Shown here piece after piece: positions 9,993-63,664 of a DNA stretch of 64,000 nucleotides. The stretch covers positions 124,001-188,000 of the forward strand of contig NIVC01001154.1 of the NCBI GenBank assembly GCA_002269645.1, written 5' to 3'. Under the pieces are notes generated by a model. The model did no database searches. It saw nothing but the letters and a program-made list of their open reading frames with translations, and was not told where the DNA came from. Every line of letters begins with the position of its first letter. Within the stretch, counting starts at the first letter, position 1. This stretch comes from Macrostomum lignano (lineage: Eukaryota). The position numbers and the translations under genes are program-made.

Positions 9993-11068
9993 GCGAGCAG
10001 CCTGTCAGCCGGTGGTTATTCATCATCAGTTTTTCTATTATATTATTAATAATGAATATTTTTTTTGACAACCAGTTCATTTGCACTCGACCGCCCGCAT
10101 TATTAAAAAACCCTATGCCTATCTTTATAACTGTCTTTAAATATATTATTAAGTAATATGTAGGCCTTGACTATTGGACTGAGTTACTTAAGTTTTCATT
10201 TTGTTATAATCAAGACAGCAGAAATATAATTGAAAAAAACATGATTCCATCAAGCTTGGCATGTGGCAGTCTTTGATGCAACTCCCAGTCTCTCTGTGTA
10301 TTCCGTAGAGCTTTTTGACAACTCTGTCAATAATTAACTTTTCCAAGAAGCCCGTCACATTTCCTGTGCTACATTAAATTCTTTGTTGTGTTGTCTCTTT
10401 ACATCCACGCCGTAGCTAATAGTTAGTGGGAGTCGGTTAGCCTGTCTGTTGTGTCTGCTATTGTTAAAGCGGAGCAGCCTTCCTATTTGACAATGTTAAA
10501 CGCATCGGTTTTCCTTTGCTTCTCATTATTCTGTTCTCTTTCTGAAGTTAAATAAACAAATGCAAATGCAAATTAAAATATTCTTCCCACCTATATTTAA
10601 CTGTCTAATCCGGTTTTTTCGTTTATTTGTTTCCCAGTTTATATTTAGCAAAATAGTTTTTCTGTCGGTTTTTATCCACCAGTCAGTAGTAAACAATTGA
10701 AAGGATGAATATAAACTGAACTAAATACACGAGAGCATCCAGTAAACTGTGTCCGCGTGCTGTGAGGAATGCCTTTGCCACAAAATAAAATAATAATAAA
10801 CATGTCGATATCGCCTTTGAAATCTCATTTTGCAATCGTTTTTTATCTACGAGTAATAATTGCTTTATTTAGGACAGCGCCACAATGTACAAAGCAAAAG
10901 TAATTGTAATTCATGCACATCGGCTGCAATACTATGCTAGATCCGGTACAATAGCTAGCGCATTGACAGCGAACTCGAATCAGGCGAAGTTAAGAGACAC
11001 TATCAACAACTAGCTAGCTTGCCTGTAAAACGAGCGGCACGAAAACTTCTACGCTCGTATATGGCTAG

Positions 11069-11641
11069 TGTAGTAGGGCATTATTTTAGGAACGGGAAAT
11101 TTTGTGGGTTTAAATATGCTTTTACCCTACTATCAGTAGTTTCAACCCGGGGAAATAATTAGAGCGGGGGTAAGTGGCTAAAATCGGGATTCCTTTAGAA
11201 CTACAGAGCAGTTGGGCTCTCGGGAAAGAAAACTCGGACCTTCGTTGGAGTGTCTTCTCCTGTTTAAACTTAGAGAGTTCACGAAGAAGTGGTAAGGAAA
11301 GGGAAATATAAGGGATAGGCTTGCACAGAGGAGTCTTGCCTCTAAAAACTGGGAGTCTTGCCCAAGCACTATAACGGGAATAAGAAAATAGGGAATTAAT
11401 GTAAAAGCAAAACTAACTTTTGTACCGTAATTCACTTTTCTATTATAAAGCTTTTTTTGTGTTAACTAAATCCAAATTGGTGTCCTGACTTGGTTCTTTA
11501 AGCCTAAAGCTAGAATTAAGGAACAGCAGGAACCTGGTGGCAGCGAACTACCAAACATTAAGCAGTACCACAGATAGCAATCCGCTCATAATCCTTAGCA
11601 ATAAGAACCAGTAGCTTAGCCGCGGTTACACGCCCATTCCA
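11069..11641 (+). repeat. 5' LTR of element A
   Basis: Starts TGTAGTAGGG, ends CCCATTCCA; near-identical to 30917-31489. Confidence 0.97.
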
Positions 11642-11643
11642 AT

Positions 11644-11653
11644 TGGTGGCAGC
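11644..11653 (+). promoter_or_regulatory. Primer-binding site of element A (TGGTGGCAGC; resembles the complement of a tRNA-Leu 3' end)
   Basis: TGG-initiated sequence 2 nt (AT) after the LTR end; the tRNA identity comes from remembered tRNA-Leu ends, not from this genome's tRNA set. Confidence 0.75.
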
Positions 11654-12094
11654 TTAGAGGATTAGAATACCCGAGAAGCGCATACATTAGACTGGAGCTT
11701 AGGATTAGTAAGGGATTAACGGATTAACTCCTATGTGCTGAAATTAGAACTAAAACTAACACAAAATTACTTATTAGGTTCTAAATTAGAGATTAATGTA
11801 CATAGTCAGTGGTCTAAGATCGTCTAATCTCAGATTAACGGATTAACGGATTAGGAACGGATTAACGCTCCTGAAAGGAATTTTAACTTAGTTTCTTCGC
11901 TAGAAGATTAGTAAAGTCTCAATTAAGACCAGAAGTAAGGCGGAAGTAATAAAATTAGAGTCACTGCTGTTTTATTAACTAAAGTCTTACCATTAGGCAA
12001 TTTAGCAGCTAAATTCGGAGTCTTGCCAATTTACTGACCAAAATTATTAAACCAGAAGCGTTAATTCTAAAATCCAACCTAAAATTAAACTAAT

Positions 12095-13138
12095 ATGGAA
12101 GCTAATGACGTAGTAGAAGCACTGGCTGAAGGCATTAGAGACAGGCTAGACATTAGGAAACATATTAGGATCCAAAAGTACACGCCTAATCAGGATATAG
12201 ACGTATGGATTCAGGCTTTCGAGCAGAGGTGTATCGCAGATGAGATACCCCCAGCTGAATGGAAGAATGAGCTACTGTCTAACCTAGATGTTCAGTCAGC
12301 GTTCGCTATCGTGACAAGGCTAAACTTAGACCCTAATCTAGCATACGCAGACTTTAAGGATAGACTAATTGAGCGGTTCACGCATGTAGGTAGTGCTCAA
12401 GAAGCTAGGGAAGAGTTCCGTAGTAGGTTCCAGTGCAAAACTGAGAGCACTGATGACTACGCTGAAAAACTGACAGAGCTAGCATGCAGGGCGTTTCCCC
12501 ATCTAACTAACGATCAGAGACAGGAAGAGGTGGTGGAACAATTTATCAGAGGTGTTAGGGTTGCCCCAGAGACTAGGGAAAAGCTACTGCTAGCTCAGGT
12601 AAACTCGCTTCAAGAGACACGTCGAGTCTTGCGACGTATCGAAATGGCGTACGCCATGTCTCGCCGAGGTAGAGACCCGCAGCAGTGTAAGGCAACTGGA
12701 GGAGAAGAAGCTGAGAATGGCTTGAAGGAATTAGTCCGCAAACAGGGTGAGGCGCTAGAGACCCAGCAGAAGGTGCTTCAGGAGTTACTCCGACACCACC
12801 AGAGTGTTGAGCAAAAGGTCAAGCAGCAGCAGCCGTCAGGTCAGCAGCAGCAAGGCCAGAATCAGCAGAGGCGTCCCCCAGTGAAGTGCAACAGGTGTGG
12901 CAAGCTAGGTCACATAGCTAAGAATTGTAGACAGCCACATCCGCAGAACCAACTTAGGTACCCGGCTCAGCAGCAGATGCAGTATCAGCAGCCGCAGTAT
13001 CAGCAGCCGCAGTATCAGCAGCCGATGTACCCACAGCAGCAGATGCAGCCGCAGTACCCGCAGCCGCAATACCCTCAGCAGCAGAATTCGGGAAACGGAG
13101 TAGACGGAAGCGTCGGAGGCAACGCTTTCCAGCAGTAG
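12095..13138 (+). CDS. Element A Gag (capsid, CCHC zinc knuckle, Q/P/Y-rich tail), 347 aa
   Basis: Retrotransposon-gag-like helices (WIQAFEQRC...AREEFRSRFQ...ESTDDYAEKL...EQFIRG); CNRCGKLGHIAKNC = CX2CX4HX4C. Confidence 0.95.
   Translation: MEANDVVEALAEGIRDRLDIRKHIRIQKYTPNQDIDVWIQAFEQRCIADEIPPAEWKNELLSNLDVQSAFAIVTRLNLDPNLAYADFKDRLIERFTHVGSAQEAREEFRSRFQCKTESTDDYAEKLTELACRAFPHLTNDQRQEEVVEQFIRGVRVAPETREKLLLAQVNSLQETRRVLRRIEMAYAMSRRGRDPQQCKATGGEEAENGLKELVRKQGEALETQQKVLQELLRHHQSVEQKVKQQQPSGQQQQGQNQQRRPPVKCNRCGKLGHIAKNCRQPHPQNQLRYPAQQQMQYQQPQYQQPQYQQPMYPQQQMQPQYPQPQYPQQQNSGNGVDGSVGGNAFQQ
13090..13130 (+). promoter_or_regulatory. -1 programmed ribosomal frameshift signal of element A (G GGA AAC + downstream hairpin)
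   Basis: GGGAAAC at 13090-96 is correctly phased in gag (TCG GGA AAC); stem GGAAGCGT (13106-13)/ACGCTTTCC (13122-30); the -1 frame is open from here into the protease ORF. Confidence 0.8.
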
Positions 13139-13760
13139 ATCCCTCACAGTCTGTAGCCTCACAACCTGTAAATAGCAGCGATAGTTTTTCTGTAAATAGT
13201 GAATTGAATCCTTCAGTGTATAACAGTACGCATGCGCAATCATTTAATCAATCATTTAATCAGCCGAACATTTACTCTCAGCACTTTTCAAACGCACCAC
13301 AACAGCAACCTTATTCTAGCAAGCAGCAGCTAAAACAACCAAAATTAACTGAACAAACTAAAAAGCAAAGTTACGATCCGTACATCACTGGCAGCATTTT
13401 AAATAAGGAAATAGTTTATCTATTAGACACTGGCAGTAATAGAAATATCTTAGGACGCGAAACCTGGAAGCATCTTTTCACTGGCAAGAATAGGCATCTA
13501 ATTAAGCATTGGGACAATAGAATCGTTTCCTTTATGGAAGAGCCTATTCCAATTAAGGGTTTCGTAGTTATTAAGGCAACATTTGGCGATTTTGAAGAAG
13601 AAGTTGAATTTCTCTTATGTGACGCAGATGTAGACAATGTAATAGGTGTGACGTTTGTCCAAAAATATTGTAATACCATTGACTTCGATGCAGGAATGCT
13701 AACCATGAAACAAGGAACTAGAATTCCGCTTCGATCAACCAGAGCTAAGCCTCAGGTTAG
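13090..13760 (+). CDS. Element A Pol, 5' part (aspartic protease), cut by insertion of element B
   Basis: YLLDTGSNRNIL protease motif and ...DNVIGVTF flap region. The ORF-track tail after 13760 (VEYYISQ...) is read-through into B's LTR. Confidence 0.92.
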
Positions 13761-14812
13761 TGTAGAGTATTATATCTCCCAGAAAAGTTATTTAAAATTG
13801 TTAACGTACTACTTAAATAGTAGTAATTTGAGGAGCATGTATAAGGATATGCGCTGAACCATACATATATTCGAATTAACCAATAGAAAGAGAGAAATCT
13901 CGAGCATGCTAATTTTAGAAATCACCCAATCACGTGCGACCAACAACTGTCAATTCAAACCCCACCTTCAAGTCATCATTTGGTTTGCACTCGGGTTGCA
14001 CCCGGATGAACCAATCAAAGTCTACCAGCTACGGTAACCAATCATGCGCTTTTACAGTAGACTAGTTGCGCAACTTTCTACCCTGTCATGCTTGACAGCC
14101 ACCGAATCGTGACCCTTTGACATTTGCGAAGACAGTGATGTACGACCTCGAGAGAGGTCTGAACGCCTATAAATACAAGTGGTCCGGAACGGACCCGGAG
14201 CCAAGAAATCTCCAAGGGAGAGAAGCTCCGAAGAGGAAGCTCTAGTGAAGCCTTCCTGAAGAAACTCGCGTCGTGGACGAGTTCTTGCGGTAAGCCTTAC
14301 TCATTTGCGCCCGTTGGTTGAGACGTCTCGCTCAAGTCTATTGAGACTTGAGTTTATTTGAGTCTGTTGAGACTCTTGAGTCTGTTTAGACTCCACTGGT
14401 TGCAGTCTCCAGAAGGACTGCCCCTGATAGATCTTAGAAGACTATCAGTGGTTTCCGGAGCCATACCTAGAGTGCATAGAGGCACTACTAGAAGGAGTAG
14501 GCTTATATTAAACCGCAGATTGGCGCAGGGTACCCATTGTTGATTTGGAAGCTTCCCATTGGTCCGCACTACAGATACCGGCCGGAAACGACTTCAGTGG
14601 ACGTAAAGGAACGCGGACCTGGTTACGAACATAGACGTCTAACGAAGTTCGAGGTTCAAAGGAAGTCCGAGAATAACAGAACACGGAAGAGCTCTCAGAG
14701 ACAGGACTCAAGGTAATACATACCTTCATTTGATTACTGGGTTGCCTAGCTACAGAGCTAGAAGTGATTGTTCCTTGATTACAGCTGAGGACTGGTAATA
14801 AGGAACACATCA
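13761..14812 (+). repeat. 5' LTR of element B; several CCAAT boxes and TATAAATA at 14168
   Basis: Near-identical to 24544-25594. Confidence 0.97.
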
Positions 14813-14814
14813 AT

Positions 14815-14825
14815 TGGTGATCTCG
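14815..14825 (+). promoter_or_regulatory. Primer-binding site of element B (TGGTGATCTCG; primer tRNA uncertain, closest to a Trp-type TGGTGACCCCG)
   Basis: TGG-initiated sequence 2 nt (AT) after the LTR-terminal CA. Confidence 0.7.
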
Positions 14826-15508
14826 CCCTCTCGGCACTACTCAAACTTTTGAGCAATAGCCTGGCCAAGCTATTGTAAAGTGACGAAAGAGCGACTTCAT
14901 TAATTTTGCGCGCACGTGTTAGAGGTAACACTTTTCGACACTTTTCGATTTTTGTACGATTTGAAACTCGAGTAAAAGTTTAGATATACAGGCTTGAGTA
15001 CCTGTCAATTTTGAGTAACGTTTGAGCACGCGTGTTAAATTTTTGTTTTTAACGAGCTCGAGCAAGAGTAAACCTTAAACAAAACCGAAAACAACGTCCG
15101 GTACACTGAAAACAAACCGAAAAATAATCAATACACACTAAAACAAAACCGAAATTAAAAACACTTGACGAAAGCTAAAACAAACCGAAATTTGATAAAA
15201 CGTGACAAGGCACGTCACGAAGACAAGAAAGGCCTTTGAAAAAAGCAAGAAGCAGCTGCACTTCAAGCACTTTAAAGATACACTTTGCGGGACGCCGCAT
15301 AAGTGCGAAAATCAGCCAGCGAATAAGAGGTCAGAAAAAGCAGCCAAAAGCCGAATTCCGCTCAAGGTCAGACATAACAAATTGAGGTGTCAAAAGCGCC
15401 GCGAGACAATCAGTTACAACCGAAGTTTATTTCGAAAGAAACACCACACTGGAAGATCCATTACAAATCGACCCAGACCTAGAGCTACCGTTCTATCCCA
15501 TCAACAAC

Positions 15509-16591
15509 ATGGCGCGGCGCAATCCAACGGTGCACAGAGATATCAAAGAGACAGTTGGCACCTTTTCTATGGAAAAAGACTTTAACACCTTTGTTGATCA
15601 TTTTGACCTGGTATGTAGGGAATACAACCTACAAAATCCAGAAAAAGCGCAACTGTTGCCACCACTCCTCCAAGGCACTGCACGAGAGATTTATGGTAAA
15701 CTAGACGCGGCAACACAGCAAAACTACCCAGCATTAATCATTCAACTGCGCGCACACTTCAACCGCTGTGGCACAAACAGGTCAGTGCTACTGCACAAGT
15801 TGCATAACAGACGGATGCAGCCAACAGAATCCTTCCTGACCTTCGTGGACGATATACGTCAAATAATTAAGGCACTGCATCAGCCAACGCTGCCAGCTGC
15901 GGATCAGCCACCTCCAGGCGCAGCGGAGTTAGCCGCAAGAGAGCGACAACGATTGATGGACCGTGAACAAAACCTCATCCTGCACGTAATAAACAATGCA
16001 CAGCCGTCACTGCGGGATAGACTTTTGCGCGAGAACATTGAAACCGAGGAAGACCTTTTACGGTGCGGAATGCAGTGGGAAGCAAGCGCTCCACTAATGA
16101 CAACCGGCAACACAGAAGTGCAGAAACTGACACAGCAACTAAACAAACTGATGCAACATCAAACAGCCGTTATCGCCGAACAAAAAAGACGAAATGAACG
16201 AGCCCAAGCCAGATGCTATTACTGTGGACGAGAAGGACACTACCAAATACATTGTCCTCATCGGTCAACAAGAAATGATATGCCGCGACAGCCATTCAAC
16301 AGACGAAAGCCGCAAAAACCATGGCAACAGCATCAAAATTGGCAGCAGCAAAACACGAAACGCTTAGGAAACAATGGCTACAGACCGCGAAACGCCAGAT
16401 ACATGCCCAAGCAACCAACGCAAGCGATGCAACGATATGCAAACGCCATCACGTACACACCGGAAAGCGAACAGCAAGAGCAGCAAGTCTTCACGATAGA
16501 CGACTTGAAATGGACTTCACTATCAATGAAATCGACTGGCTCGATGCGGAGAGCAGCGAAAAGACAAAAAACATCAGCATGGTCGAAATGA
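15509..16591 (+). CDS. Element B Gag (capsid + CCHC knuckle)
   Basis: FNTFVDHFDLVC...LLQGTAREIY...LHNRRMQPTESFLTFVDDI capsid-like pattern; CYYCGREGHYQIHC = CX2CX4HX4C. Confidence 0.93.
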   Translation: MARRNPTVHRDIKETVGTFSMEKDFNTFVDHFDLVCREYNLQNPEKAQLLPPLLQGTAREIYGKLDAATQQNYPALIIQLRAHFNRCGTNRSVLLHKLHNRRMQPTESFLTFVDDIRQIIKALHQPTLPAADQPPPGAAELAARERQRLMDREQNLILHVINNAQPSLRDRLLRENIETEEDLLRCGMQWEASAPLMTTGNTEVQKLTQQLNKLMQHQTAVIAEQKRRNERAQARCYYCGREGHYQIHCPHRSTRNDMPRQPFNRRKPQKPWQQHQNWQQQNTKRLGNNGYRPRNARYMPKQPTQAMQRYANAITYTPESEQQEQQVFTIDDLKWTSLSMKSTGSMRRAAKRQKTSAWSK

Positions 16592-19500
16592 AAGAAACTA
16601 ACATTGACAGCGAAGAAGAAAAGGCAGAAGTGAGCACAGAAAAAACATTGCCAAGCGACATCAATGAAAGAAAAGAAGAAACAAACAAAGGCAACGACAA
16701 AGAACTGGCAACGAAGGATGACAACGAAAGAAGCAACGACGGAAATGCAGAAATGGAAGAAGAACAGCAAGAAGAAAGCAGCGATCACGATTATGAGATG
16801 CAGAATGACGCTGATGACAACCAAGCCGCCGACAAAGAACATGAAGACGGAAGGCACAAAGGAATGGAAGAAAGAAATCTAAGCTCCGACAGCGATCAAT
16901 GCTACGAGATCCGATATAAACGAAATGGTGAAGCCTACATTCAAACGGTCGACTACAAGGCCGAAGTAAGGTACCGCAGACAATGGAGTGACACAACTAC
17001 AACATCGGAAGAAAGCAAGGACGAAAATGATGAAGACGACAAGCAGCGGAACGAATCGGATGCCTTGCGCTCGGAAACGCCAATGGAACAAGAGGAAGAA
17101 TACGATGCGGACGCAGAAGATAACGAATGGCAGCCGCAGCCAATGCCAGCAAAGACAACGGCAACGTTCAGAAAATGGCGATTCTGGATATTCTGGATCA
17201 TCATAATACTACTGACGGCAGTAGTCACCAAAGCAACAGCAATGGAGAAACCAATGATATGTCCAACGGATGCGCATATCCAACCGATGATCTACAAGAT
17301 ACCAACCGACATCAAATGCAGCTACTTCAAGACAAATCAGACGAAGCCAAAGAAGATCACAATTGATCTCTACAAAGCTAACATCAAGAAGCATCGACAA
17401 CTCGGAATAGTGTGCTTTAGAGACAAGCACCTAGTGGAAAAAGTTTGGCGAGGACAATGGAACAGAATTCGATTTTGGCAACACGAACTACATGTGTCGC
17501 ACGCTGAATGTCTACAATGGAACCAAACACTGTTCTCAAAGGATGGTCAGCTAGAACCGGATGAGAAAGTGGGGGAGGCACAACTTTACCGAACGAAGAA
17601 CTCAGCAAACGGACGATATGTACACTTTTCGGAAGCATGGACTAACTACATGACACGAAACAGTTACCTAATCAGGAATATTCCATTCTACCACAATCCT
17701 TTTGAAAAAATGGAGTCGCTACAACTGCAATTAAGCGACTGCCGATACAGCAAAGGATGGTGTCCAACGCCGATACTGCGGAATGAGGAACTATACAGCT
17801 TACCGTTGAGTCCAACATATCATCAAGACTATCGATGGCAAATAATACGCAGAGGCGACTCACGATATGAAGAACCATCTAAGTCACGACAATACTTCTT
17901 CGCGTGGGAAGTTGAGCCGGAAATTGACTGCAAGCTTCAAAAGTATCACACAGTTGAAGGAGGTCTACTGTCAAACACGTTTTTGGCAAAGTCAGGAGAC
18001 TTGGCACTGACATTTCAAAAGAAACCAGTCGAGCAAAAACTGAAATGCAAGGATACAGACAAGACACTATTCATCTCGGAACAAGAGATACCAGTCTACG
18101 TAAAAGATGACGACAAACAAACCTTTCTGGCGATCATCAACGGAACGTATCAACAGCAGGAACAACAGAACAGACGACGACGTGACATCGAACGTCCCAA
18201 ACTGGTGTCAAACCGACTACTGTCAGCAAAGATAACGGCTTTGGATCACAATCTACACAACCAGTTAAACCACTTGCATCGAACACTGGTCCAGCTAACT
18301 TGCAAAATGCACGCAATCAACTTAAATTATGCCAGACAAAACTACTATGTCAACCCTACGATGACTTTTCGTAAAATCACCGGAATGACGAACGTTTTGG
18401 CAGTTCCAATATACGAGCATCTGTTGATATACAAGTGCACGCCGATACAGCACTTTAACATCTTGCCGTCGAACACGTCAACAACCTGCTACGACAAGCC
18501 AAGGATTGAAGCGTTCTACGAAGGAAAACGAATTCAGGGATTCTTGGACACGGTACACAACATCATCGTTGGCACCGCAATACCGAGACCTTGCACCACG
18601 GCAGCGAACTACTATCAACTGGACAATGCACTACACGTCATCAAAACAACTGGAACGACAGCAAACATCACAGAACCGGAAGTAATCGTCGACGAAAACT
18701 ACGACATGGAGGATTTGAAAATCCGATTCAACAGAACAAAGTATACGCCATTCGCCGATATCCAACTTGACGAAATAACACCAGGATGGACGATCAACGA
18801 CTTCTTGCAAGCGTTCATCACCCAACGCAAGATGATTCACCAGCTGTTCACAAGAAAGGACAAAGGAACCGGGACAGGAAGATTTCCCGTCCTTGTTTCA
18901 ATGGACAGCGCCATCAAATCATTTTGGACAAACAGCTTCTGGGAGCTGCTCAATGGAAGAGGCAGTCTCTATCAAGGATTCATCTTCTACGGTGCTTGCA
19001 TTGTGTGGATTGTCACGGCAATCTTCATCATTTCGTCAATCGTACGGTGCTTCAGTCAAACTTGTCCAAGAGCTAAGAAGACAGTGAATGCCATAATGCA
19101 AAGAACGACAACGGAAGGCGACAACAGTTTAGAACTAACAGAAACTGCACATCGTGAGGTTCAAGGGCAACCGACACTAGCAACGCGGCTATATCCATCG
19201 ATTCCGACAACACCAACGGCACCAAGAATACAACCACCTAACTATCAAGCAGAACAGCAAGACCCAAAATGGCCAGAAAACTACGTATGTACTCTACACG
19301 CCGAAATTGGCAAAGCAATGGCTCAAGTTATAATCAACAATCTACCATGTCGAGCGTTACTGGACTCCGGCAGCTCCATTACAGTTATATCAAAACAACT
19401 GTGCAACAAGCTACGACTTGCTCTACGGCCAGCAACAATCGCAGTTGCAGGAGCAGGAGGACATTCGCTAAACATTCTGGGAAAAGCCGACATTGATTTA

Positions 19501-21156
19501 AGAATCGCTAATAAACATTTGACAGTTCCAACGTACGTCATCGACAGACTCCCAAACCAGGACGTTATTGTTGGCATCGACACGTTCAAGCAGCTTCGAC
19601 TACCATTGACCTTCGACTTCAATAAGCAAACGTTCAAGATCGACTCGGTAGAACAACCATTGATCAACCAGATCCGAGTACTACCAAAAGTAACATTGCA
19701 ACAAGATGTCATCATCCAACCGGAGAGCGCCTGCTGGATAAAGGCAAAGGCAACTAACGCAACGGAGGAAGCAATGATATTCGACCCAAACAGAAGAGTC
19801 ACGGCTAAACACCAAATTATGATGCCTACGGCACTAGTACTGGTTGCAAAAGATAAACAGCTGCCAGTACAAATATTCAACCCGAACACAGAAACGGTTC
19901 ATCTACGACAAGGAATGTGCATCGGTCATCTCAACACCCAAGCATCGGTTATGCTGATTGAGCAAGCGACTCCACGACTAACAGAGGAAGAATTTCAAAA
20001 GAAGATCAATTTGGATGACAGCCCGATTACGGAACAGCAAAAGAGGAAAGTTCGACAGCTGTTGTGGAAGTACAACGACGCTTTCTGCCACCATGACTAC
20101 GACATCGGACGAGCCAAGGACATCAAACAGGAAATCAAACTTCTGCCGCACACGGAACCAATTCAGTGCAAACCGTACCCGATCGCCAAGCATCTGCAAC
20201 AGCACTTCGATGAGATTATCGACAAAATGCTGAAACACGGCATCATCAGCAAAGCCATTTCAGCATACTCATCACCATGTCTCTTGGTGCAAAAGAAGGA
20301 GACTAACGAAAGACGACTCGTATGTGACTTCAGACTACTGAACAAGTACATACCGACGGATCAGCAAAGCCTACCGAAGATCTCCGAACTACTAGCAAAG
20401 CTCAACACGGCAAAATTGTTCACAGTGTTCGATCTACGTCATGGATTTTGGCAAATTGAAATCGAGAAAGAGTCACGACAGTACACGGCTTTCAAAACCT
20501 ACAATGGACAAGTATACGAGTACAATCGATCGCCGATGGGACTCAGCAACAGCCCAGCAACGATGAGCCGACTAACAGCATACATGCTTGCAGGATGCAC
20601 GAACCTGTTGCACTATGTTGACGACATCTTGGCCTACGGAGAAGACTTCGAACGACTCTATGAAGCGACGGAGAAGGCCCTCGCGCTTATACAACGTCAA
20701 GGTCTGAAGCTACAACCAACTAAATGCAAATTCTTCCGAGACAACGTGCGTTACCTGGGACATCAGGTGACAGCCAAAGGAATTTCACCGGACCCAGACA
20801 ACGTGGATAAAGTGAAAAAGTTTCCTACGCCAACTAGCATAACGAAGGTCCAATCATTTCTTGGACTAGCGCAATACTTCCGAAAGTTCTTACCCAACTT
20901 CGCGAAGACAGCAAAGCCGCTGTACGACCTGCTCAAGTTCGACAAATGGAAGCAGGAGAATTGGACACAAAAGCAACAAGAAAGTTTTGACGAAATCAAA
21001 CGACAGCTGACATCAGACGCACTGCTACAGCATCCGGACTTCGACAAACCCTTCATCATCGAGACAGACGCCTCAGGAACGGGACTCGGAGCGTCCTACT
21101 ACAGGAAACTGAAGAAAAAAGGAACGACCTATAGCCTACGTCAGTCGAGCACTTAA
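16321..21156 (+). CDS. Element B Env-Pol polyprotein: acidic linker, signal peptide, class III-like glycoprotein ectodomain, TM, late-domain tail, protease, RT, start of RNase H
   Basis: Hydrophobic WRFWIFWIIIILLTAVVTKATA (from 17176); 12-Cys ectodomain with RRRR furin site (18172-83); TM GFIFYGACIVWIVTAIFIISSIV (from 18976); LLDSGS (D at 19363); YVDD (20614); IIETDASGTGLGA; all in one stop-free frame. Confidence 0.93.
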   Translation: MATASKLAAAKHETLRKQWLQTAKRQIHAQATNASDATICKRHHVHTGKRTARAASLHDRRLEMDFTINEIDWLDAESSEKTKNISMVEMKETNIDSEEEKAEVSTEKTLPSDINERKEETNKGNDKELATKDDNERSNDGNAEMEEEQQEESSDHDYEMQNDADDNQAADKEHEDGRHKGMEERNLSSDSDQCYEIRYKRNGEAYIQTVDYKAEVRYRRQWSDTTTTSEESKDENDEDDKQRNESDALRSETPMEQEEEYDADAEDNEWQPQPMPAKTTATFRKWRFWIFWIIIILLTAVVTKATAMEKPMICPTDAHIQPMIYKIPTDIKCSYFKTNQTKPKKITIDLYKANIKKHRQLGIVCFRDKHLVEKVWRGQWNRIRFWQHELHVSHAECLQWNQTLFSKDGQLEPDEKVGEAQLYRTKNSANGRYVHFSEAWTNYMTRNSYLIRNIPFYHNPFEKMESLQLQLSDCRYSKGWCPTPILRNEELYSLPLSPTYHQDYRWQIIRRGDSRYEEPSKSRQYFFAWEVEPEIDCKLQKYHTVEGGLLSNTFLAKSGDLALTFQKKPVEQKLKCKDTDKTLFISEQEIPVYVKDDDKQTFLAIINGTYQQQEQQNRRRRDIERPKLVSNRLLSAKITALDHNLHNQLNHLHRTLVQLTCKMHAINLNYARQNYYVNPTMTFRKITGMTNVLAVPIYEHLLIYKCTPIQHFNILPSNTSTTCYDKPRIEAFYEGKRIQGFLDTVHNIIVGTAIPRPCTTAANYYQLDNALHVIKTTGTTANITEPEVIVDENYDMEDLKIRFNRTKYTPFADIQLDEITPGWTINDFLQAFITQRKMIHQLFTRKDKGTGTGRFPVLVSMDSAIKSFWTNSFWELLNGRGSLYQGFIFYGACIVWIVTAIFIISSIVRCFSQTCPRAKKTVNAIMQRTTTEGDNSLELTETAHREVQGQPTLATRLYPSIPTTPTAPRIQPPNYQAEQQDPKWPENYVCTLHAEIGKAMAQVIINNLPCRALLDSGSSITVISKQLCNKLRLALRPATIAVAGAGGHSLNILGKADIDLRIANKHLTVPTYVIDRLPNQDVIVGIDTFKQLRLPLTFDFNKQTFKIDSVEQPLINQIRVLPKVTLQQDVIIQPESACWIKAKATNATEEAMIFDPNRRVTAKHQIMMPTALVLVAKDKQLPVQIFNPNTETVHLRQGMCIGHLNTQASVMLIEQATPRLTEEEFQKKINLDDSPITEQQKRKVRQLLWKYNDAFCHHDYDIGRAKDIKQEIKLLPHTEPIQCKPYPIAKHLQQHFDEIIDKMLKHGIISKAISAYSSPCLLVQKKETNERRLVCDFRLLNKYIPTDQQSLPKISELLAKLNTAKLFTVFDLRHGFWQIEIEKESRQYTAFKTYNGQVYEYNRSPMGLSNSPATMSRLTAYMLAGCTNLLHYVDDILAYGEDFERLYEATEKALALIQRQGLKLQPTKCKFFRDNVRYLGHQVTAKGISPDPDNVDKVKKFPTPTSITKVQSFLGLAQYFRKFLPNFAKTAKPLYDLLKFDKWKQENWTQKQQESFDEIKRQLTSDALLQHPDFDKPFIIETDASGTGLGASYYRKLKKKGTTYSLRQSST

Positions 21157-21171
21157 ACCGAATGAGACAAA

Positions 21172-22824
21172 ATGGTCAGCTACGGAACGAGAACTACTAG
21201 GAGTTCTGTTCGCCTACGACAGTTTCACTACTACATCTATGGATCTCCATTACAGACGATAGTACGCACAGATCACGCACCGCTGACCTACGTCGTAACT
21301 ACAAAAGGACAAACAAACAACCGACTCATCAGGATGACACTCAAGATCCAGGACTACAACTACAAGCTCGTCTACAAACCAGGAATTACTAACAAGGCCG
21401 CGGACGCCCTGTCAAGAACCTACGAAGTCAACGCCATTCATCCAATCCCTAACATCAAGGAATTGGTGGATGAGACGGAACACGACAACTTCTACATAGC
21501 AGTTAAAAACAACGACAAGGACATCAAGCTCAGCCCCGTGGAACGAAAATTCCTGCGCAAGCAGCGACAACATTTAACAATCAACAAGTCACGACTCTAC
21601 TGGATGAGTGACAACAAACCTAAAATCTACATGCCATATTCGTTTAGGCAGGCAATTCTCAACGAGCTGCACGACAACCCACTCGCTGGACACCTGTCGG
21701 CAGCCAAAACCATTGCAAGAGTGGAGCAATACTACTTTTGGCCAAGCATGCATGGCGACATCAAGCAGTATTGCAACAACTGCCACTCATGCGCAGCATC
21801 GAAGACAGGACGACGACAAAAACCACAGCTACAATCGATACCAAAGTCAACAACTATGGACTGTCTCAGCATCGACATCACCGGACCGCTGCCACCGAGC
21901 TGTCTCCATGGCATAGCCTACACCTACATCCTAACAGCCTTGGACATTTTCTCAAAGTTTGCTATTGCCATACCAATACCGGACATCACAGCTCAGACAG
22001 TGGCAATGGGTTTCTTCAACGACATCATCTGCAAGTACGGTACGCCAAAGAACCTCACATCGGACAATGGATCGCAGTTTACGTCTCAACTCTTTCAGCA
22101 AGTGGTGAAGATCCTCAACATCACGCAGATCTACACATCGACCTACAATCCGAAGGCGAACATGGTTGAAAGGTTTCACCGCAACCTACACGAGATGATT
22201 ACACACTTCGCGCATCAACAACCGGACGACTGGATCATCTATCTGCAAGCAGTAACAATGGCCTACAACAGCGCTATTCATCGATCAACGGACAATACGC
22301 CATTCTTTCTAATGTTTGGGCGAGACTTCCAGCCGCCAAACCTATTGGCACAGCAACTACTACCATCGCAATATGTGGAAGTCCCGACGTCCATTCAAAA
22401 GTTCGTCACGCAACTACACCTCGCATGGAAAGTAGCCAAGCACAACATCGACAATCAGGTGGCTCTGACCACCGGCACCGACACGAGATCGACAACTCTG
22501 ACAGCCGGCGACATCGTCTACCTGCACTATCCGCCACAACAGACGCACAAACACGCACAGAAGTACAAAGGACCATATCGAGTGGTCCAACTAACGTCAC
22601 CGACAACGGCACGCCTGGCCAATGTGCAAGATCCTCATCAGCACCAATTCTACGTGCACATTCATCGATTGAAAAGGGTCAACACTGACACGGCGACATT
22701 TCTACCGTCACTTGACAATGCCGACCGCACGCGTTCGACAAACCGCCACATCGCAACGAAGCACGAGGAGACTCAAACAACGAACGAGAGCCAGCCGCAC
22801 GGCTATAATCTGCGACCTCGTTAA
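21172..22824 (+). CDS. Element B Pol, 3' part (RNase H remainder + integrase); same frame as the upstream ORF
   Basis: RTDHAPL, NKAADALSR; HHCC (HDNPLAGH...CNNCHSC), SIDITG / SDNGSQF / VERFHR DDE triad, GPY motif. The true junction is masked by three 1-nt deletions at 21093-21214. Confidence 0.93.
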   Translation: MVSYGTRTTRSSVRLRQFHYYIYGSPLQTIVRTDHAPLTYVVTTKGQTNNRLIRMTLKIQDYNYKLVYKPGITNKAADALSRTYEVNAIHPIPNIKELVDETEHDNFYIAVKNNDKDIKLSPVERKFLRKQRQHLTINKSRLYWMSDNKPKIYMPYSFRQAILNELHDNPLAGHLSAAKTIARVEQYYFWPSMHGDIKQYCNNCHSCAASKTGRRQKPQLQSIPKSTTMDCLSIDITGPLPPSCLHGIAYTYILTALDIFSKFAIAIPIPDITAQTVAMGFFNDIICKYGTPKNLTSDNGSQFTSQLFQQVVKILNITQIYTSTYNPKANMVERFHRNLHEMITHFAHQQPDDWIIYLQAVTMAYNSAIHRSTDNTPFFLMFGRDFQPPNLLAQQLLPSQYVEVPTSIQKFVTQLHLAWKVAKHNIDNQVALTTGTDTRSTTLTAGDIVYLHYPPQQTHKHAQKYKGPYRVVQLTSPTTARLANVQDPHQHQFYVHIHRLKRVNTDTATFLPSLDNADRTRSTNRHIATKHEETQTTNESQPHGYNLRPR

Positions 22825-22970
22825 GTTGCGAAAACAAACCCGTGTAGAGACCGGGTCAGAATAGCTCTACAGCTTCGCAAGCTTGTCGTAAGAGGCGACT
22901 AATCCGAGCGACTCCACAAGTGAACTCTACAATTGACTACATAACCGCAACTGACGCTTGGCTAACGACT

Positions 22971-23639
22971 ATGGGCAATGCACAGTCTAGACTGGCGACC
23001 CAGCCACGGCAACTCTATGAATGCCCTGTCTGTTTGGAAGATGACCTGTATAAAAAACCACCAACCATTTGTATAAATAATCATCGCATATGCGGCACTT
23101 GCTTGTGTGACGCGCATCATATCCAACACTGGCAAAGCTGCCCCCTATGTAGGAGTAGTCTGACGCAGTGCGCCTATTGTTATTCGTGGCGCACCTTTCA
23201 ATACTGTAATCAAAGTCATTTTATTTGCATGCAATGCTTGAAACGAACCGCTAGTAGGGGCATCATAGGATGCCCTATGTGTAACAGTATGCCGAAGGAC
23301 AGCACCTTCAAGAAGTGGTGTCGCATCAAGCCCGACGCCAATCGATGCTTACATGTTGATAATATTCGAACACTACCCGCAATACGTATCGAACAGTTGC
23401 TAGAGTTTTGGCCAGTACCTCGTTTCGCTCGACGGTCACGCAATGAATTACTACCGTACGCACATAACAATCAAGGAATATTGCGTCATATGTTACCCCT
23501 GGATATAGAACGACATCTACGACAATTTTTGCATGCCCATCACGCGTTTCACTGGACATTGCACATATATTGCCACGCGCTAAAAAGATTAATTTTGTCA
23601 CGTAGTTATTTCATATGGCTTTTACGGTATACACAGTAG
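22971..23639 (+). CDS. Element B accessory ORF 1: tandem C3HC4-type RING protein with N-myristoylation motif (222 aa from the ATG)
   Basis: MGNAQS; CPVC..CINNH..CGTC..CPLC and CAYC..CNQSH..CMQC..CPMC; lies inside the LTR boundaries. Confidence 0.85.
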   Translation: MGNAQSRLATQPRQLYECPVCLEDDLYKKPPTICINNHRICGTCLCDAHHIQHWQSCPLCRSSLTQCAYCYSWRTFQYCNQSHFICMQCLKRTASRGIIGCPMCNSMPKDSTFKKWCRIKPDANRCLHVDNIRTLPAIRIEQLLEFWPVPRFARRSRNELLPYAHNNQGILRHMLPLDIERHLRQFLHAHHAFHWTLHIYCHALKRLILSRSYFIWLLRYTQ

Positions 23640-23693
23640 ACTGTATACTTCACCCTGACTGCTTTAATTACGATGATTACATAAAACCCGCAG

Positions 23694-24332
23694 ATGGCCG
23701 AGAACAACGACGTATGCCCCTGCTGTCTCGAGACGCGGGACTATATGATCCCGACGTGTGAGTGGGGACACCGCGTGTGTGTCTCCTGCGACGCCATGGC
23801 GCAGCAGGTGGATGGCAATGTTACCATGCTATCTACCTGCCCGGTCTGCCGTCGCGCGCGGGCTACCTGTGTGGTATGCGGCGAACAGCCCCATGTTCAG
23901 GTGTGTTCCAACCGACATTGGGTCTGTGCAAGCTGTCTCCGAAGGTACGGTGCAAGAGATATAGAGATCTGCACCGAATGTCTAGCTCCTGTCAACCATT
24001 CGACGGCGCTGATGTTGGCGACAATAACACCAGTGCCAGAGTTGACGTTGGCGGAGCCGGACAGCTTGACCTTCGAGCAATTGTCCATCGCCGTCCGGTC
24101 GTGGCCGTGGCCGCACCGGCATCAGGAGTCATGGCGTCACGTCCTTGGAATTTCCAGGAGCCTGGCTCGCGAGCACCCAGGACTCACGAGTATTGACGCC
24201 TACCTGATGATACTCGAGCGCACAGAGGAACCGCGCTTCACACGCTTTCAGCCGACATTCTGGGCGGTGGCATGTCTGGCTGCGCGAACAGCGCAGCAGA
24301 TATCCGCCGTGCTCAAAATCGGGTTCGGCTGA
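23694..24332 (+). CDS. Element B accessory ORF 2: tandem C3HC4-type RING protein, 212 aa
   Basis: CPCC..CEWGH..CVSC..CPVC and CVVC..CSNRH..CASC..CTEC; same architecture as accessory ORF 1. Confidence 0.85.
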   Translation: MAENNDVCPCCLETRDYMIPTCEWGHRVCVSCDAMAQQVDGNVTMLSTCPVCRRARATCVVCGEQPHVQVCSNRHWVCASCLRRYGARDIEICTECLAPVNHSTALMLATITPVPELTLAEPDSLTFEQLSIAVRSWPWPHRHQESWRHVLGISRSLAREHPGLTSIDAYLMILERTEEPRFTRFQPTFWAVACLAARTAQQISAVLKIGFG

Positions 24333-24505
24333 TCGTCCGAGCGGCATCAACACAGGGGCAAGTGTCATCTGCATTTATCAGACGATAACTTTCCATTAAC
24401 TCTGACAAAACTAACTACTGATAATGTATACAATGTAACATACCGGCAATATAAATATATACAATATCAAGTTCAAGACGTTTCTGTAAATTTATATTTT
24501 TATTC

Positions 24506-24540
24506 AAACTCGGGACGAGTTTTTTCGTAAAAAAGGGAGA
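24506..24540 (+). promoter_or_regulatory. Hairpin (AAACTCG-GGA-CGAGTTT) and polypurine tract of element B
   Basis: Perfect 7-bp stem followed by AAAAAAGGGAGA, 3 nt before the 3' LTR. Confidence 0.8.
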
Positions 24541-24543
24541 TTT

Positions 24544-25594
24544 TGTAGAGTATTATATCTCCCAGAAAAGTTATTTAAAATTGTTAACGTACTACTTAAA
24601 TAGTAGTAATTTGAGGAGCATGTATAAGGATATGCGCTGAACCATACATATATTCGAATTAACCAATAGAAAGAGAGAAATCTCGAGCATGCTAATTTTA
24701 GAAATCACCCAATCACGTGCGACCAACAACTGTCAATTCAAACCCCACCTTCAAGTCATCATTTGGTTTGCACTCGGGTTGCACCCGGATGAACCAATCA
24801 AAGTCTACCAGCTACGGTAACCAATCATGCGCTTTTACAGTAGACTAGTTGCGCAACTTTCTACCCTGTCATGCTTGACAGCCACCGAATCGTGACCCTT
24901 TGACATTTGCGAAGACAGTGATGTACGACCTCGAGAGAGGTCTGAACGCCTATAAATACAAGTGGTCCGGAACGGACCCGGAGCCAAGAAATCTCCAAGG
25001 AGAGAAGCTCCGAAGAGGAAGCTCTAGTGAAGCCTTCCTGAAGAAACTCGCGTCGTGGACGAGTTCTTGCGGTAAGCCTTACTCATTTGCGCCCGTTGGT
25101 TGAGACGTCTCGCTCAAGTCTATTGAGACTTGAGTTTATTTGAGTCTGTTGAGACTCTTGAGTCTGTTTAGACTCCACTGGTTGCAGTCTCCAGAAGGAC
25201 TGCCCCTGATAGATCTTAGAAGACTATCAGTGGTTTCCGGAGCCATACCTAGAGTGCATAGAGGCACTACTAGAAGGAGTAGGCTTATATTAAACCGCAG
25301 ATTGGCGCAGGGTACCCATTGTTGATTTGGAAGCTTCCCATTGGTCCGCACTACAGATACCGGCCGGAAACGACTTCAGTGGACGTAAAGGAACGCGGAC
25401 CTGGTTACGAACATAGACGTCTAACGAAGTTCGAGGTTCAAAGGAAGTCCGAGAATAACAGAACACGGAAGAGCTCTCAGAGACAGGACTCAAGGTAATA
25501 CATACCTTCATTTGATTACTGGGTTGCCTAGCTACAGAGCTAGAAGTGATTGTTCCTTGATTACAGCTGAGGACTGGTAATAAGGAACACATCA
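24544..25594 (+). repeat. 3' LTR of element B
   Basis: Near-identical to 13761-14812. Confidence 0.97.
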
Positions 25595-25598
25595 ATAG

Positions 25599-28500
25599 GA
25601 GAATCTATGTCGCAGAAAAAACGACAGTTTCAGCCAATAGTTCAGGATTAGTCAAGGTCAGATTAGCAGCAGGTAGTGAAACTAATTTCGGAGTGCCATC
25701 AGTTATTGAGCCACTCAGATCAGGATTGAAGACTAGAACAGAGAAAGTAACCGTAGTGCCAAGTTTAGTAACTCTAAGACAAGGGGAAGCTTATTTAGAA
25801 GTAATTAACACCAGTTCACAGGAAGCTAGAGTACCAGCATCAGCATTAGTTGGGATGGCCAAGCCACTCTTAGCTAGCGAGCTTAACTATCTGAAGGAAC
25901 AGCCAGAAGAAGAGCAGAATAAGAACACGCAGTCTTGCGGAAGCAGAGAAAAGATCAGCCAGGTACAGGACAAGTCAGAAGACTGGATTAGTGAGATTAA
26001 CATAGGAACTGAACTGACTCAGGAACAGAGACAAAAGGTGATCGAGGTCGTCAAGGAACATTCAGCAGCTTTCTCGCAGCACGAGTTAGACTTAGGCAGA
26101 ACGCATTTAGTCACACATGAAATTATCTTGAAGGATAACAACCCAGTTCAGATACCAGCTAGAAAGATTCCACCTCATTGGATCAAGGAGGTAGATGAGC
26201 AGTTAGATCTCATGTTGGCTAGAGGCATAATTAGGCCTAGTTACTCGCAGTACTCGACTCCATTAGTCATAGTACCTAAGAAAGACGGTTCGCTTAGATT
26301 AGTTAACGACTATCGAGCACTAAACAATAAATCGGAGTATTTTCCGTATCCAATAACTAATATCAATGAAACATTCTCATGTCTCCATGGAGCCAGTCAA
26401 TTTTCTACGTTAGATCTATTTTCGGGATATTATCAGATAGCTCTTAGGGAAGAAGATAAGTGCAAGACTAGCTTTCCAACTTTACATCGAGGCTCGTTTG
26501 AGTACGAAGTATTGCCAATGGGACTGCAAGGAGCTCCAGGAACTTTTCAAAGGTGCATGAACTTAGTTCTTAAGGACATTGCACAGAAGTTCGCCATAGC
26601 TTACTTAGACGATGTAATAGTTTATAGTGCAGACTTTGAATCGCATTTAGAACACCTGAAAGAAGTGCTCAAGAGACTAATCCAAGCTAACATGAAACTA
26701 AAGGCTAAGAAATGTCACCTTTTCAAATCAGAATTACAATATCTAGGACACGTCATAGGCAAAACAGGAATTAAGAGAGATGCGTCGAAATTAGAATCAA
26801 TTAGGAACTGGCCGAAACCTAAATCTGTGACAGAGCTTCGAAGTTTTCTCGGACTCTGTAATTACTATAGAAAATTCGTTAGAGATTTTGCCGAGGTAGC
26901 AGCACCACTCTGTGAGTTAACTAAGAAGAACATCAAGTGTATCCAGGACAAATGGACCAGGATTCATGATGAATGCTTCGAACTGTTGAAGGAACGGATG
27001 TGTTCCGAAGAAGTGCTTGCTTACCCAGAGTTCAATACAGACCCCCAAGTTTATTTTGTGTTAGACACTGATGCATCAGATGTCAGAATTGGGGCGGTCT
27101 TGAATCAAGTTCAGAGCGACGGCATAGAAAGTCCGATCGCGTATTATAGTCGGAAGATGAGGCAGTCAGAAACTAGATATCCGATTACGAGGAAGGAGCT
27201 TCTAGCGATTGTTGACTCGCTGAAGTATTTTAGATTTTACCTCGTAGGAAAACATTTTAAGGTGCGCACTGATCACAATGCCCTAACCTGGTTGCTTCGC
27301 CAAACCGAACAGACAGGCATTTTAGGTCGTTGGATCGAAAGACTTTCTGAATTTGATTTTGAGATAGAACATAGGAGTGGCCCTAAACATGTGAATGCTG
27401 ACGCTCTATCCAGGATCCCTGATCCTCAACCGGAAGAGATGTCCCCACATGCCAGGTCGCTAAGCTGTAGGGCAACTGTGAATACAGACCCAGCATCAGC
27501 TTTTACTGTCAGCTCAGGCAATTCCGCGTTCGCTGAAACCTGTAGCTCGAGCAGTGGAGTTCCGTCATGCTGTTCGTCACAAGACACTGTCACGAACCGA
27601 CACAATACTCCGATCTTTAGTAGCAGTAGGCTAGACAATAGACAGGGACAGGAGCCTAAAACCGGAAATCCGCCTGCATGCAATGCCCTGCTCAGTGACT
27701 ATCTCCGTAGCCCAGTTCGCCGTGACCAATTGATCGCAGCACAGCTAGCCGATCCGGCGGTAGGCTTTGTTAGAAAATTAATTGAGAATGACTCGCCTAA
27801 ACCGACATTTCAAGAACGACTAGAGTTAACCCACGACTGTAGGAACCTCTTAGGTTACTACGAGTTGCTCAGAATTGAGGACGGCGTACTCAAAGTAGAC
27901 TTATCTATGGGGCAGACTGATCCAAAGGTAGTGTTGCCCAAGTCTCTGGATAGTGAAGTCTTTCACCAATTCCATGATTCACCGTTAGCGGGACACCTAG
28001 GTCGAGATAAAACTTATCAGAGAATTAAAATTCGATTTTGGAGGCCAGGATTAGCAACAGCAGTTGAACGCTACGTAGCCAAATGTAAATCATGCCTAGA
28101 AAGCAAAACTAGAAGAAGAATTAAGGCACCAATTCAGAACTATCCTGTAGTCGAACCGTTCGGTAGATTGCACATAGATCTAATAGGACCTATTGGCCAA
28201 ACTAGCAAATCAGGAAACAAATATGTACTTTCAGTCATAGACAGTACTAGCAAATTTCCATTCGCATTCGCAATTAGGAATCAGAAGGCTAAAACAGTTA
28301 TCAAAATTCTACAAGAACGAGTTTTCGCTGATTTTGGGATTCCACAATGGATTCACACAGACCAGGGAACACAGTTCACTGGTAGGGCCTTTAAGAAATT
28401 TTTAGACCTCTATGGCATTAGACACACTCGAACAACTAGTTATCATCCGCAGAGCAATGGCTTAGTAGAAAACCTTAATAAGCAGATTAAATCAATTCTC

Positions 28501-29535
28501 ACCTGTTTACTGGAGAAGGAGCATTCCAACTGGGACGTTCTGTTGCCAGGTTGCATAACAGCTCTGAGAACCAGCACGCACACTGCCACAGGATTTAGTC
28601 CGCACTATTTAGTCTTTGGACGAGAGGCCAGAATGCCCTGTGACAATGAGCTGAACGAGCCAAAGCAGTTTCAGGACCTGCCATCTTATGTCCAGGAACA
28701 TCAGCAGAATCTGCAGGAAGGCCAAGAACTAGCGAGAAAGAGATTAAAATTAGTGCAACAAAACCGTGAGCAGGAGTACTCTAACAAGCCTAAGCCGAAA
28801 ACATTGCCTGTAGGAAGCTTAGTATTTATCAATAATCCAGTAATTGCTAACACAGAGGCTAACAAATTTCACAGAAAACAGAGGGCAGTTTACGAAATTG
28901 TAGAACAACTATCAGAAGTAGTCTTTAAGATTAGACCAGTTACCAGAAATAAGAAGGCCAGGAAGGAAGAACTTATCATGCATAGAGACAATTTAATGAA
29001 AGTACCGCAAGCAGATTATCAGGAAGAAGAAGCTAGTACTAAACCAAAAGAACAGAAGAAACAATACGATAGGGAACAGTTAGCCAATAGTCAGCCGAAT
29101 GGGTACAATGACTCAGAAAGTGAAGACGAGTACGAAGACGCAGTGCAGTTTATGCCAGTGCAACATCAAAATAATGAGCAGTTTATGCCAGTGCAAAATC
29201 AAAATAATGTGCAGTTAGTGCCAAATCAACAAGTGCAACATCAAAATAATGAGCAGTTTATGCCAGTGCAAAATCAAAATAATGTGCAGTTAGTGCCAAA
29301 TCAACAAGTGCAGCATCAAAATAATAATCTAAATAATTTAGTAGGTGTACACGGAGTTATGCCAGTACAATTAAATAATAACAATAATAATTTAGGGATT
29401 AATTTAGAAGCTAGGCCAGCGAGAGAGCGTCATGCTCCAGATAGATTAACAGTCAGGCCAAATCAGAAAAGTTATGTGCAGAGGATAGCGGAGTTGTTTA
29501 ACCCATTTAACCTCTTGCAGCCGAAATCCCAATAA
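25599..29535 (+). CDS. Element A Pol, 3' part (PR-RT spacer, RT, RNase H, integrase, Q/N-rich tail)
   Basis: Removing B plus 4 nt restores ...KPQV-RRIYVAEKTTV...GVPSVIEP in frame; AYLDDVIVY, LDTDASD, KVRTDH, HDSPLAGH..CKSC, HIDLIG / TDQGTQF / LVENLNK; no stops. Confidence 0.95.
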
Positions 29536-29538
29536 ATC

Positions 29539-30249
29539 ATGGCCGAAGCCCCTCTTCGGGTGTATCCAAGGAAACGCATCTATGGCCAAAGAAGAAGACA
29601 GGAGCAAGACGAGAATGAGCCCCCGCGAATTCGGGCCGCACAATTGGCAGAGCGTGAAGAATGCAAGAAGCAGAAATTAGATCATCGGGAAGAGGAAGAG
29701 GGTAGGCTAACTATCGACGTAGACCTGGAAAAATTAGGAAGAGAGACGGAAAAAGCGGAAGCTGAATTTAGGGACGAGATGGCGCAATTCATGGAAGAAA
29801 TCCGACAACAGGAAGAAGGGGTGGAACCCATTGATGAGCAGGAAGAGGCGGCCGCGGAAGAACCAAATCACCAGCCGGAGCAGTGTCCATCCGAGCAATG
29901 CCAGGCAGGGCAAGGCCAGCATGAGTCTACGCTCATCGATTACGCTACATTGCTCAGGGCAGATCTGGGTGATACGCCGGCTCCTAAAGAGACCAACGCC
30001 GAACGGCCGGATAGTCCCGGAACGCAGGCGCGGAAATTCCGCAATTGTCGTCGCGCCTTGAAGCGGGCTATCCTGGCTACAGGGAAAAACAGGACGATTC
30101 GAGGCGCAGCTACCGGACGCGTGCGTCCAGTTCTTGGCCACGGCGACCCCAGAGGAAGCAGTCCGATGCTTCGAGATTGCCTGCTCATACTGTTTACAGT
30201 ACGCCGAAGGGAGAGCGCGGGGTCCGACCAATATGAGAGCGACCACTGA
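29539..30249 (+). CDS. Element A ORF3, acidic/charged protein of unknown function (C-terminus uncertain)
   Basis: ATG 3 nt after the pol stop, same frame; basic N-terminus (PRKR..RRR), E-rich helical middle; no TM segment, so not Env. Confidence 0.65.
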   Translation: MAEAPLRVYPRKRIYGQRRRQEQDENEPPRIRAAQLAEREECKKQKLDHREEEEGRLTIDVDLEKLGRETEKAEAEFRDEMAQFMEEIRQQEEGVEPIDEQEEAAAEEPNHQPEQCPSEQCQAGQGQHESTLIDYATLLRADLGDTPAPKETNAERPDSPGTQARKFRNCRRALKRAILATGKNRTIRGAATGRVRPVLGHGDPRGSSPMLRDCLLILFTVRRRESAGSDQYESDH

Positions 30250-30906
30250 GCAGCTGGAATTTTTCGCCAGACAATTCGACCCTACTCACCAGATGATCCC
30301 GATAAACGGATTACTGTATCTATCTACTCAAAACACCCAAAATCTCCGGCCAATCCATTAGGTAAGATAGAGAACTTAGCCAACCAATGACTTTTAGCTC
30401 GGTTACACATAATCGATGACATTTTATTTTACCATCTTTTGGAGTAGAATTGGAGTAAACTTGCCAAATTATTTTACCGCTTTTTTTTGCACTGCATTTT
30501 CTTTCTTTTCTTGTTGTATACACCTGCCAATTATTCTTGTTCAATTGCTCAAACAACTCAGCAGCCATTTAATAGTGCAACTGTTCATGCTATAACTCAA
30601 TTTATCATATTTAGCCATTTAATAGTGCAATTATGTTAACGGTGCATATCATAATTATCATGTTCAACATTTAATCCATTCGTAATAATACAGTTCTGCA
30701 TGCAATCAATCAAACGCGTATTTCAACCTAATCCCATTACTTTTACGACTCGGCATACCAGTAACTTCCCCACTTGATATACGTGTAATCTTGTTACAGT
30801 AGCTTATATTCAGTATATCGCTGATAAAGCGCAATATTACTTATTAAATTTCATTAAATAAATATAATATCAATGTACAAAAGGGGGTTTTGCACATTTG
30901 TTTAGC

Positions 30907-30916
30907 GAGGGGGAGG
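30907..30916 (+). promoter_or_regulatory. Polypurine tract of element A
   Basis: GAGGGGGAGG directly abutting the 3' LTR. Confidence 0.9.
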
Positions 30917-40550: not shown

Positions 40551-40634
40551 CAGCAGCCCTTTGTCTAATGAGACTAGCTGACAAATTGACACCGTGCATC
40601 AGATGCAACCAGTGCTTATTTAGTGAGTCATTTG

Positions 40635-42445: not shown

Positions 42446-42663
42446 ATATATTTCTTTCGCCAAAATGTACATCTATTGAAACTTAAGATTCACTTTTGCC
42501 GAAGCGTCTTTCGCCGAAAATTCCTTCGCCAAAATGGGCTGCACCCGCCACACCTACGCCTACCTTAATATATCAACAGTGAATGAAGAAGGCGCTATCA
42601 AAATGAATAGGCCTAATTGAGATACAACAGCAAAAAATGTGACCAAATGCACTTGTCGGGATA

Positions 42664-60661: not shown

Positions 60662-63664
<3,003 letters not shown>

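Follow-up and report, generated by a model that had tools for sequence, protein, structure and literature searches.

Conserved late-domain-like motifs between Env and protease in a gB-type GAG-ENV-POL retroelement of Macrostomum lignano

Within a retroelement (element B) of the 64,000-nt stretch of DNA analysed here, the window, positions 19189-19245 (+), read in frame with ORF 16279-21156, encode LYPSIPTTPTAPRIQPPNY, and the string LYPSI-PTT-PTAP-RIQ-PPNY lies ~50 residues past the Env membrane anchor and ~40 ahead of the protease DSG. A sequence-only reading had taken this for all three retroviral late-domain types in 19 residues of an Env cytoplasmic tail, through which the element would bud by way of ESCRT, and the in-frame translation confirms the string itself. 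The question that this locus raises is whether these are late domains at all and which part of the element carries them. From the comparison of related sequences, it is probable that they are real late domains, recruiting ESCRT for the budding of a GAG-ENV-POL element with a gB-type Env.

By its order of Pfam domains (a weak zinc knuckle, protease, RT, RNase H and integrase, env lying between gag and pol) and its gypsy-type profiles, element B is placed in Ty3/gypsy, and it is inserted into the pol of a second gypsy element, element A (Table 1). The 4-mers flanking it match at three of four positions. There is no P[TS]AP or PPxY in the long ORFs of element A, which has an extra acidic ORF after the integrase (29536-30249) with no Pfam match. 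In the window copy of element B, frameshifts, which are either lesions or assembly errors, split the coding region over three ORFs (401, 1,625, and 552 aa), and these hold no P[TS]AP or PPxY beyond those in the segment between Env and protease. A search of its own genome, in which 121 of 856 candidates were scored, gave at least 128 matches; at least 9 other copies of the family (family B) have open frames of 2,461-2,538 aa, and most of its copies are more than 95% identical. In L032 and in the sister-family loci L039 and L040, one frame holds the zinc knuckle, Env, protease, RT, and integrase. The named database proteins of family B and of one related family are from Macrostomum lignano, and two homologue searches by word index found nothing but Macrostomum-named or own-family proteins.

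Table 1. Features of elements A and B, by position in the window.
Feature	Position	Strand	Remarks
Element A, gypsy, no Env in ORFs	11068..31489	+	574-bp LTRs 99.8% identical; Pfam
Element B, whole	13761-25594	+	nested inside pol of element A
5' LTR of element B	13761..14812	+	LTR pair 99.7% identical
Primer-binding site of element B (tRNA-type)	14815-14826		after 5' LTR
gag ORF, one zinc knuckle	15386..16591	+	frameshift in gag-env junction zone breaks window copy
ORF: acidic spacer, Env, linker, protease (DSG 19363), RT (YVDD 20614), RNase H start	16279..21156	+	frameshift at end
Internal hydrophobic segment / signal sequence ending ATA	17182..17241	+	hydropathy; putative cleavage
Env ectodomain, predicted class III (herpes gB-like) fold	17242..18975	+	structure model and Foldseek
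Polybasic RRRR site in Env ectodomain	18172	+	
Env C-terminal transmembrane segment	18976..19041	+	hydropathy
Predicted cytosolic linker, Env anchor to WPENY block before protease, ~81 aa	19042..19284	+	
VNAI, candidate cleavage site for the element's protease	19084..19095	+	
LYPSI	19189..19203	+	ALIX-type (YPXnL-like, I for L) or YxxPhi sorting motif
PTAP	19213..19224	+	putative TSG101-type late domain
PPNY	19234..19245	+	PPxY, putative NEDD4-type late domain
ORF: RNase H end and integrase	21166..22824	+	
Two accessory ORFs with RING-like Cys clusters	22848..24332	+	weak Sina_RING matches below cut-off
Polypurine tract of element B	24529-24540		ahead of 3' LTR
3' LTR of element B	24544..25594	+	LTR pair 99.7% identical

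RING-like accessory ORFs after the integrase are common to element B and its sister families (3' regions of L031, L037, L039, and L042), and a tie to ubiquitin-dependent budding or to counter-defence is possible. Near 22912, contigs from three of four runs diverge from the window, and the accessory block may differ among subfamilies. Elsewhere in the window there is a P-element/THAP-type DNA transposon (51407-55994) with 321-nt inverted repeats, 99% complementary, and TNP-like domains on the minus strand that are split in two ORFs. A Tc1/mariner-like element with inverted repeats and a DDE_3/HTH ORF (39297-41247), an exon, probably of the host, that encodes a RING finger (TRIM-like) and a polyglutamine run (47933-49510), and arrays of 21-30-nt minisatellites (9311-9753, 32629-33237, 35825-36375, 42027-42446, 57106-57764, 61228-62989) are also present. 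No tRNA genes were found in the 64,000 nt.

The ectodomain of Env is predicted to fold like the HSV/gB-type (class III) proteins. Its model, from 54 sequences, has a mean pLDDT of 80, and all 32 of the Foldseek matches listed for it are herpesvirus gB (E 1e-21 to 4e-18); Pfam Monjiviricetes_fusion gives a weak match, below the cut-off, upstream of the protease. From the hydropathy of the two hydrophobic segments, what follows the anchor would be cytosolic. Because Gag, Env, and Pol share one ORF, the motifs lie in a linker between Env and protease inside a Gag-Env-Pol polyprotein. This is the place where HIV p6 sits, just upstream of the protease, and not an Env tail alone. The earlier notion that the motifs belong to Env rather than to Gag was thus too simple, given the single ORF and given that related families have PPxY or PSAP after the nucleocapsid. 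The region from the nucleocapsid to the Env signal is a long acidic low-complexity spacer (16279-17180 in the window), strongly variable among families, and in some of them it is this spacer that carries PPxY or PSAP.

Two other features of the linker were considered. In the single-ORF copy, motifs resembling the linker's VNAI terminate Gag (YANAI) and precede the integrase (EVNAI), and another lies behind the anchor in the distant homologue P0034/P0060. VNA/I was nevertheless rejected as a conserved cleavage site, being absent in the other five families and found beyond family B only in P0034/P0060. A 99-nt in-frame intron that would remove the motifs, from the database gene model of a family-B protein (P0002), was rejected as real splicing: contigs of four out of four runs, guessed to be RNA, cross the would-be donor gap-free, and the joint is not listed.

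Of 70 loci examined in the host genome, 69 gave a linker (all but L061), and these were sorted into six families. RT identity of the other five families to family B is 82, 82, 45, 43, and 42%, with Env identity of 65, 63, and 26-31%. P[TS]AP is present in 67 of the 69 linkers and in all six families, the exceptions being PPAP in L051 and PNAP in L040, the latter despite an open frame of 2,502 aa. In the long ORFs of 15 loci only one further P[TS]AP lies outside the linkers, in a cytosolic spacer. As read from these sequences, the linker is where P[TS]AP has been selectively retained.

The other two motifs are less widely kept. All 49 family-B loci have [LM]YPSI, all six loci of the two sister families nearest to B have IYP[KR]I, and LYPTL, with a strict YPTL, is found in the L048 family only; there is no YP motif in the linkers of the L045 and L047 families, which leaves YPx[IL] in four out of six. 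The LYPSI of element B fails the strict YPxL pattern, with its terminal Leu, and is the imperfect ALIX motif that it had been called. PPxY is present in 49 of 49 family-B linkers, where x is N, T, I, or G, and absent from the linkers of the other five families. The families that lack it there often have PPxY in the spacer after the nucleocapsid instead (PPPY in L039/L040, PPAY in L042, and PPRY in L043-type loci), which is in line with the position independence described for late domains (PMC8402826). A second PSAP in L048 likewise follows the nucleocapsid. The order also differs, being YP-PTAP-PPxY in family B and PTAP-YP in L039, L042, and L048. The cluster of three motifs in 19 residues is therefore specific to family B. 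The expectation that the three would be conserved together amid a divergent tail does not hold; taken singly, it is borne out for P[TS]AP in every family, for the YP motif in part, and for PPxY within family B.

The linkers themselves have diverged. The family-B linker aligns above shuffled sequence to that of L039 only (z 5.0), and to those of four of the other five families at the level of shuffles (z -0.5 to 1.1), while alignments within clades reach z 5-11.5. Since the linkers align within clades, the fair count is two clades and not six independent tests. The product of the P[TS]AP shuffle probabilities over six families (6e-10) was set aside on account of their relatedness; with a single family from each clade the figure is ~4e-4. 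Retention of the motifs appears, on this comparison, to be real and beyond chance.

More distant Env homologues are a further source of evidence. An exhaustive phmmer search gave 51, of which 50 were examined, P0004 covering only the N-part. Once 2 proteins of the host's own families are left out, together with 1 in which the anchor was called in the wrong place, 9 in which none passed the threshold, 5 that stop short of it, and 2 whose tails are <40 aa, there are 31 tails. P[TS]AP is present in 4 of these against 0.28 expected (a count reached in none of 5,000 shuffles), PPxY in 3 against 0.74 (P = 0.035), and hydrophobic-YPx1-3[LI] in 2 against 0.68 (P = 0.15), an enrichment that is not significant. 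At least one motif is found in 8 of the 31 tails where 1.65 would be expected, and 23 have none of the three. By density, P[TS]AP occurs twice in 11,913 aa of ectodomain and four times in 3,507 aa of tail in these homologues. The sole named motif carrier found is P0041, from Haemonchus contortus, and the tail motifs are absent in two Panagrolaimus proteins. P0006, which is among those left out of the 31, ends in PSAP; as recorded, P0006, P0022, and P0034/P0060 end soon after their motifs, like a Gag ending in p6. As a control, 20 other protease loci were picked from 150 matches; they form 12 families and have no Env match upstream of the protease. Two of them, both of one family, have P[TS]AP, which there ends Gag, and one has PPxY. 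The gypsy family of L118 (2188-3795, +) and L121, which has no Env before the protease, has a Gag that ends in PTAP, and its Pol frame encodes, ahead of the protease, a cold-shock domain (Pfam CSD, E 3.7e-6).

The motifs might bind ESCRT and NEDD4 proteins for a purpose other than the release of infectious particles, namely traffic or removal of Env-Pol by YxxPhi endocytosis, ubiquitination, or sorting into multivesicular bodies. The motifs are indeed placed on a membrane protein, and pairs of PPxY and PSAP occur in host sorting adaptors. YPSI fits the YxxPhi pattern (Y-x-x-bulky hydrophobic in a cytosolic tail), as do YPKI and YPTL, and such endocytosis signals are listed for retroviral Env tails in PMC8278194 (Table 2). 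The likeness covers YPSI in an Env tail but leaves PTAP, PPxY, and the fixed Y-P unexplained: in four families a hydrophobic residue before the tyrosine (Y-1) and a proline after it (Y+1) are conserved, and YxxPhi requires neither. PPxY and PSAP are also found on the Gag side of Env, and bluetongue virus NS3 is a viral membrane protein that does bud by way of such motifs (PMC6949946). A role in traffic alone is the most serious alternative, though an unlikely one.

It is less likely still that the linker is a spacer constrained for another purpose, such as protease processing, SH3-type or other proline-rich binding, or an RNA signal, with its resemblance to late domains secondary. The linker is Pro/Thr-rich, WPx[NA]Y is kept as well as PTAP, and in 21 distinct, equal-length family-B sequences seven codons of YPSIPTT-P are without synonymous change, as a constrained spacer could have them. 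The PTAP and PPxY codons, however, do show synonymous changes, those for P, P, and Y of PPxY changing in that way only, and the exact P[TS]AP 4-mer is found again in linkers with no alignment to one another, its distance to the protease varying. That the matches arose by chance in disordered, proline-rich sequence and were copied with a young family of near-identical members is very improbable: although single motifs are not rare in shuffles of the 81-aa linker (P[TS]AP 1.6%, PPxY 4.1%, and loose YPx1-3[LI] 8.6%), all three fall together in 4 of 200,000, and retention across two clades at ~43% RT identity and enrichment in distant homologues both speak against chance, which is largely refuted for P[TS]AP, with a weaker case against it for the YP motif.

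The host has candidates for the partners that late domains would need. Its TSG101 UEV (E 6e-43 to human) is identical to the human one at T58, Y68, N69, M95, V141, and S143 and differs by Y63H and F142V, positions which we take to be pocket residues. ALIX_LYPXL_bnd domains (V-domain matches) and HECT domains are also present. The matches for the TSG101 UEV, for the ALIX type, and for several HECT domains come in near-identical sets of three (L071, L072, L073; L074-L076), and the copy counts may be inflated by duplication or retained haplotypes. Prediction of a complex between the host TSG101-UEV and a 46-aa piece of the linker gave 0.24 and 0.28 against a mark of 0.34, which is evidence neither way.

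If the motifs are late domains, the two hydrophobic segments would place Env in the lumen, while Gag and the linker-Pol part would stay cytosolic and tethered to the membrane. Particles would assemble on a membrane. PTAP would then recruit TSG101 and ESCRT-I for scission of the bud neck, whether budding is at the plasma membrane or into endosomes. In family B, PPxY (NEDD4 family) and perhaps YPSI (ALIX) would assist, and the protease would afterwards free Pol from Env. P[TS]AP would on this model be the core signal, with PPxY and YP as modular helpers. A more detailed version, possible but tentative, is an enveloped virion made from one Gag-Env-Pol protein that spans the membrane twice, with a p6-like ESCRT segment, a VNA/I switch, and an Env insertion. 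In this the late-domain segment tethered behind the fusogen would drive scission by ESCRT, and cutting at VNA/I by the element's own protease would remove the late domains and Pol and leave an Env tail of ~17 residues, a maturation switch like that of the retroviral R-peptide. Env would have been inserted inside an old junction of Gag-p6 and protease. Should the twice-spanning virion exist, it would give Ty3/gypsy elements outside insects a defined ESCRT route of egress. In either version, the conserved P[TS]AP of the linker would be sequence evidence, independent of Env itself, for budding as enveloped particles, and the motifs name host factors that are open to knockdown.

The class of element is already known, and it is the late-domain reading that appears to be new. 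Errantiviruses of GAG-ENV-POL order with an HSV/gB-type Env are described from Nematoda, Bryozoa, and Platyhelminthes by Chary and Hayashi (eLife 2026, PMC13524379), who credit the nematode elements to Sacco et al. 2022. Element B matches this class in gene order, gB-type Env, LTRs, and multiple copies, and its primer-binding site is that of Platyhelminthes_Rhabditophora_Mlig_errantivirus_2 in their supplementary file 1. That paper regards the transmission mechanisms of env-bearing Ty3/gypsy elements outside Drosophila as still elusive, and its main text has no mention of late domain, ESCRT, budding, cytoplasmic, single ORF, or RING. The accessible parts of PMC4604429 have no passages on LTR, gypsy, or polyprotein, and no report of late domains in such elements was found in the literature searched, which covers few subscription journals.

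Outside this class, there is a likeness to retroviral Gag. The motif classes in the linker are identical to the three that are reviewed, with their position independence, in PMC8402826, where HIV-1 p6 has PTAP and YPXnL and the Gag of MLV has, likewise, all three (PSAP/LYPAL/PPPY). The linker motifs differ in that they follow a membrane anchor, in the Env-Pol part of an invertebrate Ty3/gypsy polyprotein, and are known from sequence alone. In the NS3 protein of bluetongue virus, cytosolic PSAP and PPRY recruit TSG101 and NEDD4 for egress (PMC6949946), so that a viral membrane glycoprotein there carries a pair like the PTAP and PPNY of element B, but NS3 is non-structural, comes from a dsRNA virus, and is not a fusogen joined to Pol. 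Taken with these systems, the linker suggests that late domains have been used, or reinvented, in an unusual place by a lineage of retroelements outside the Retroviridae.
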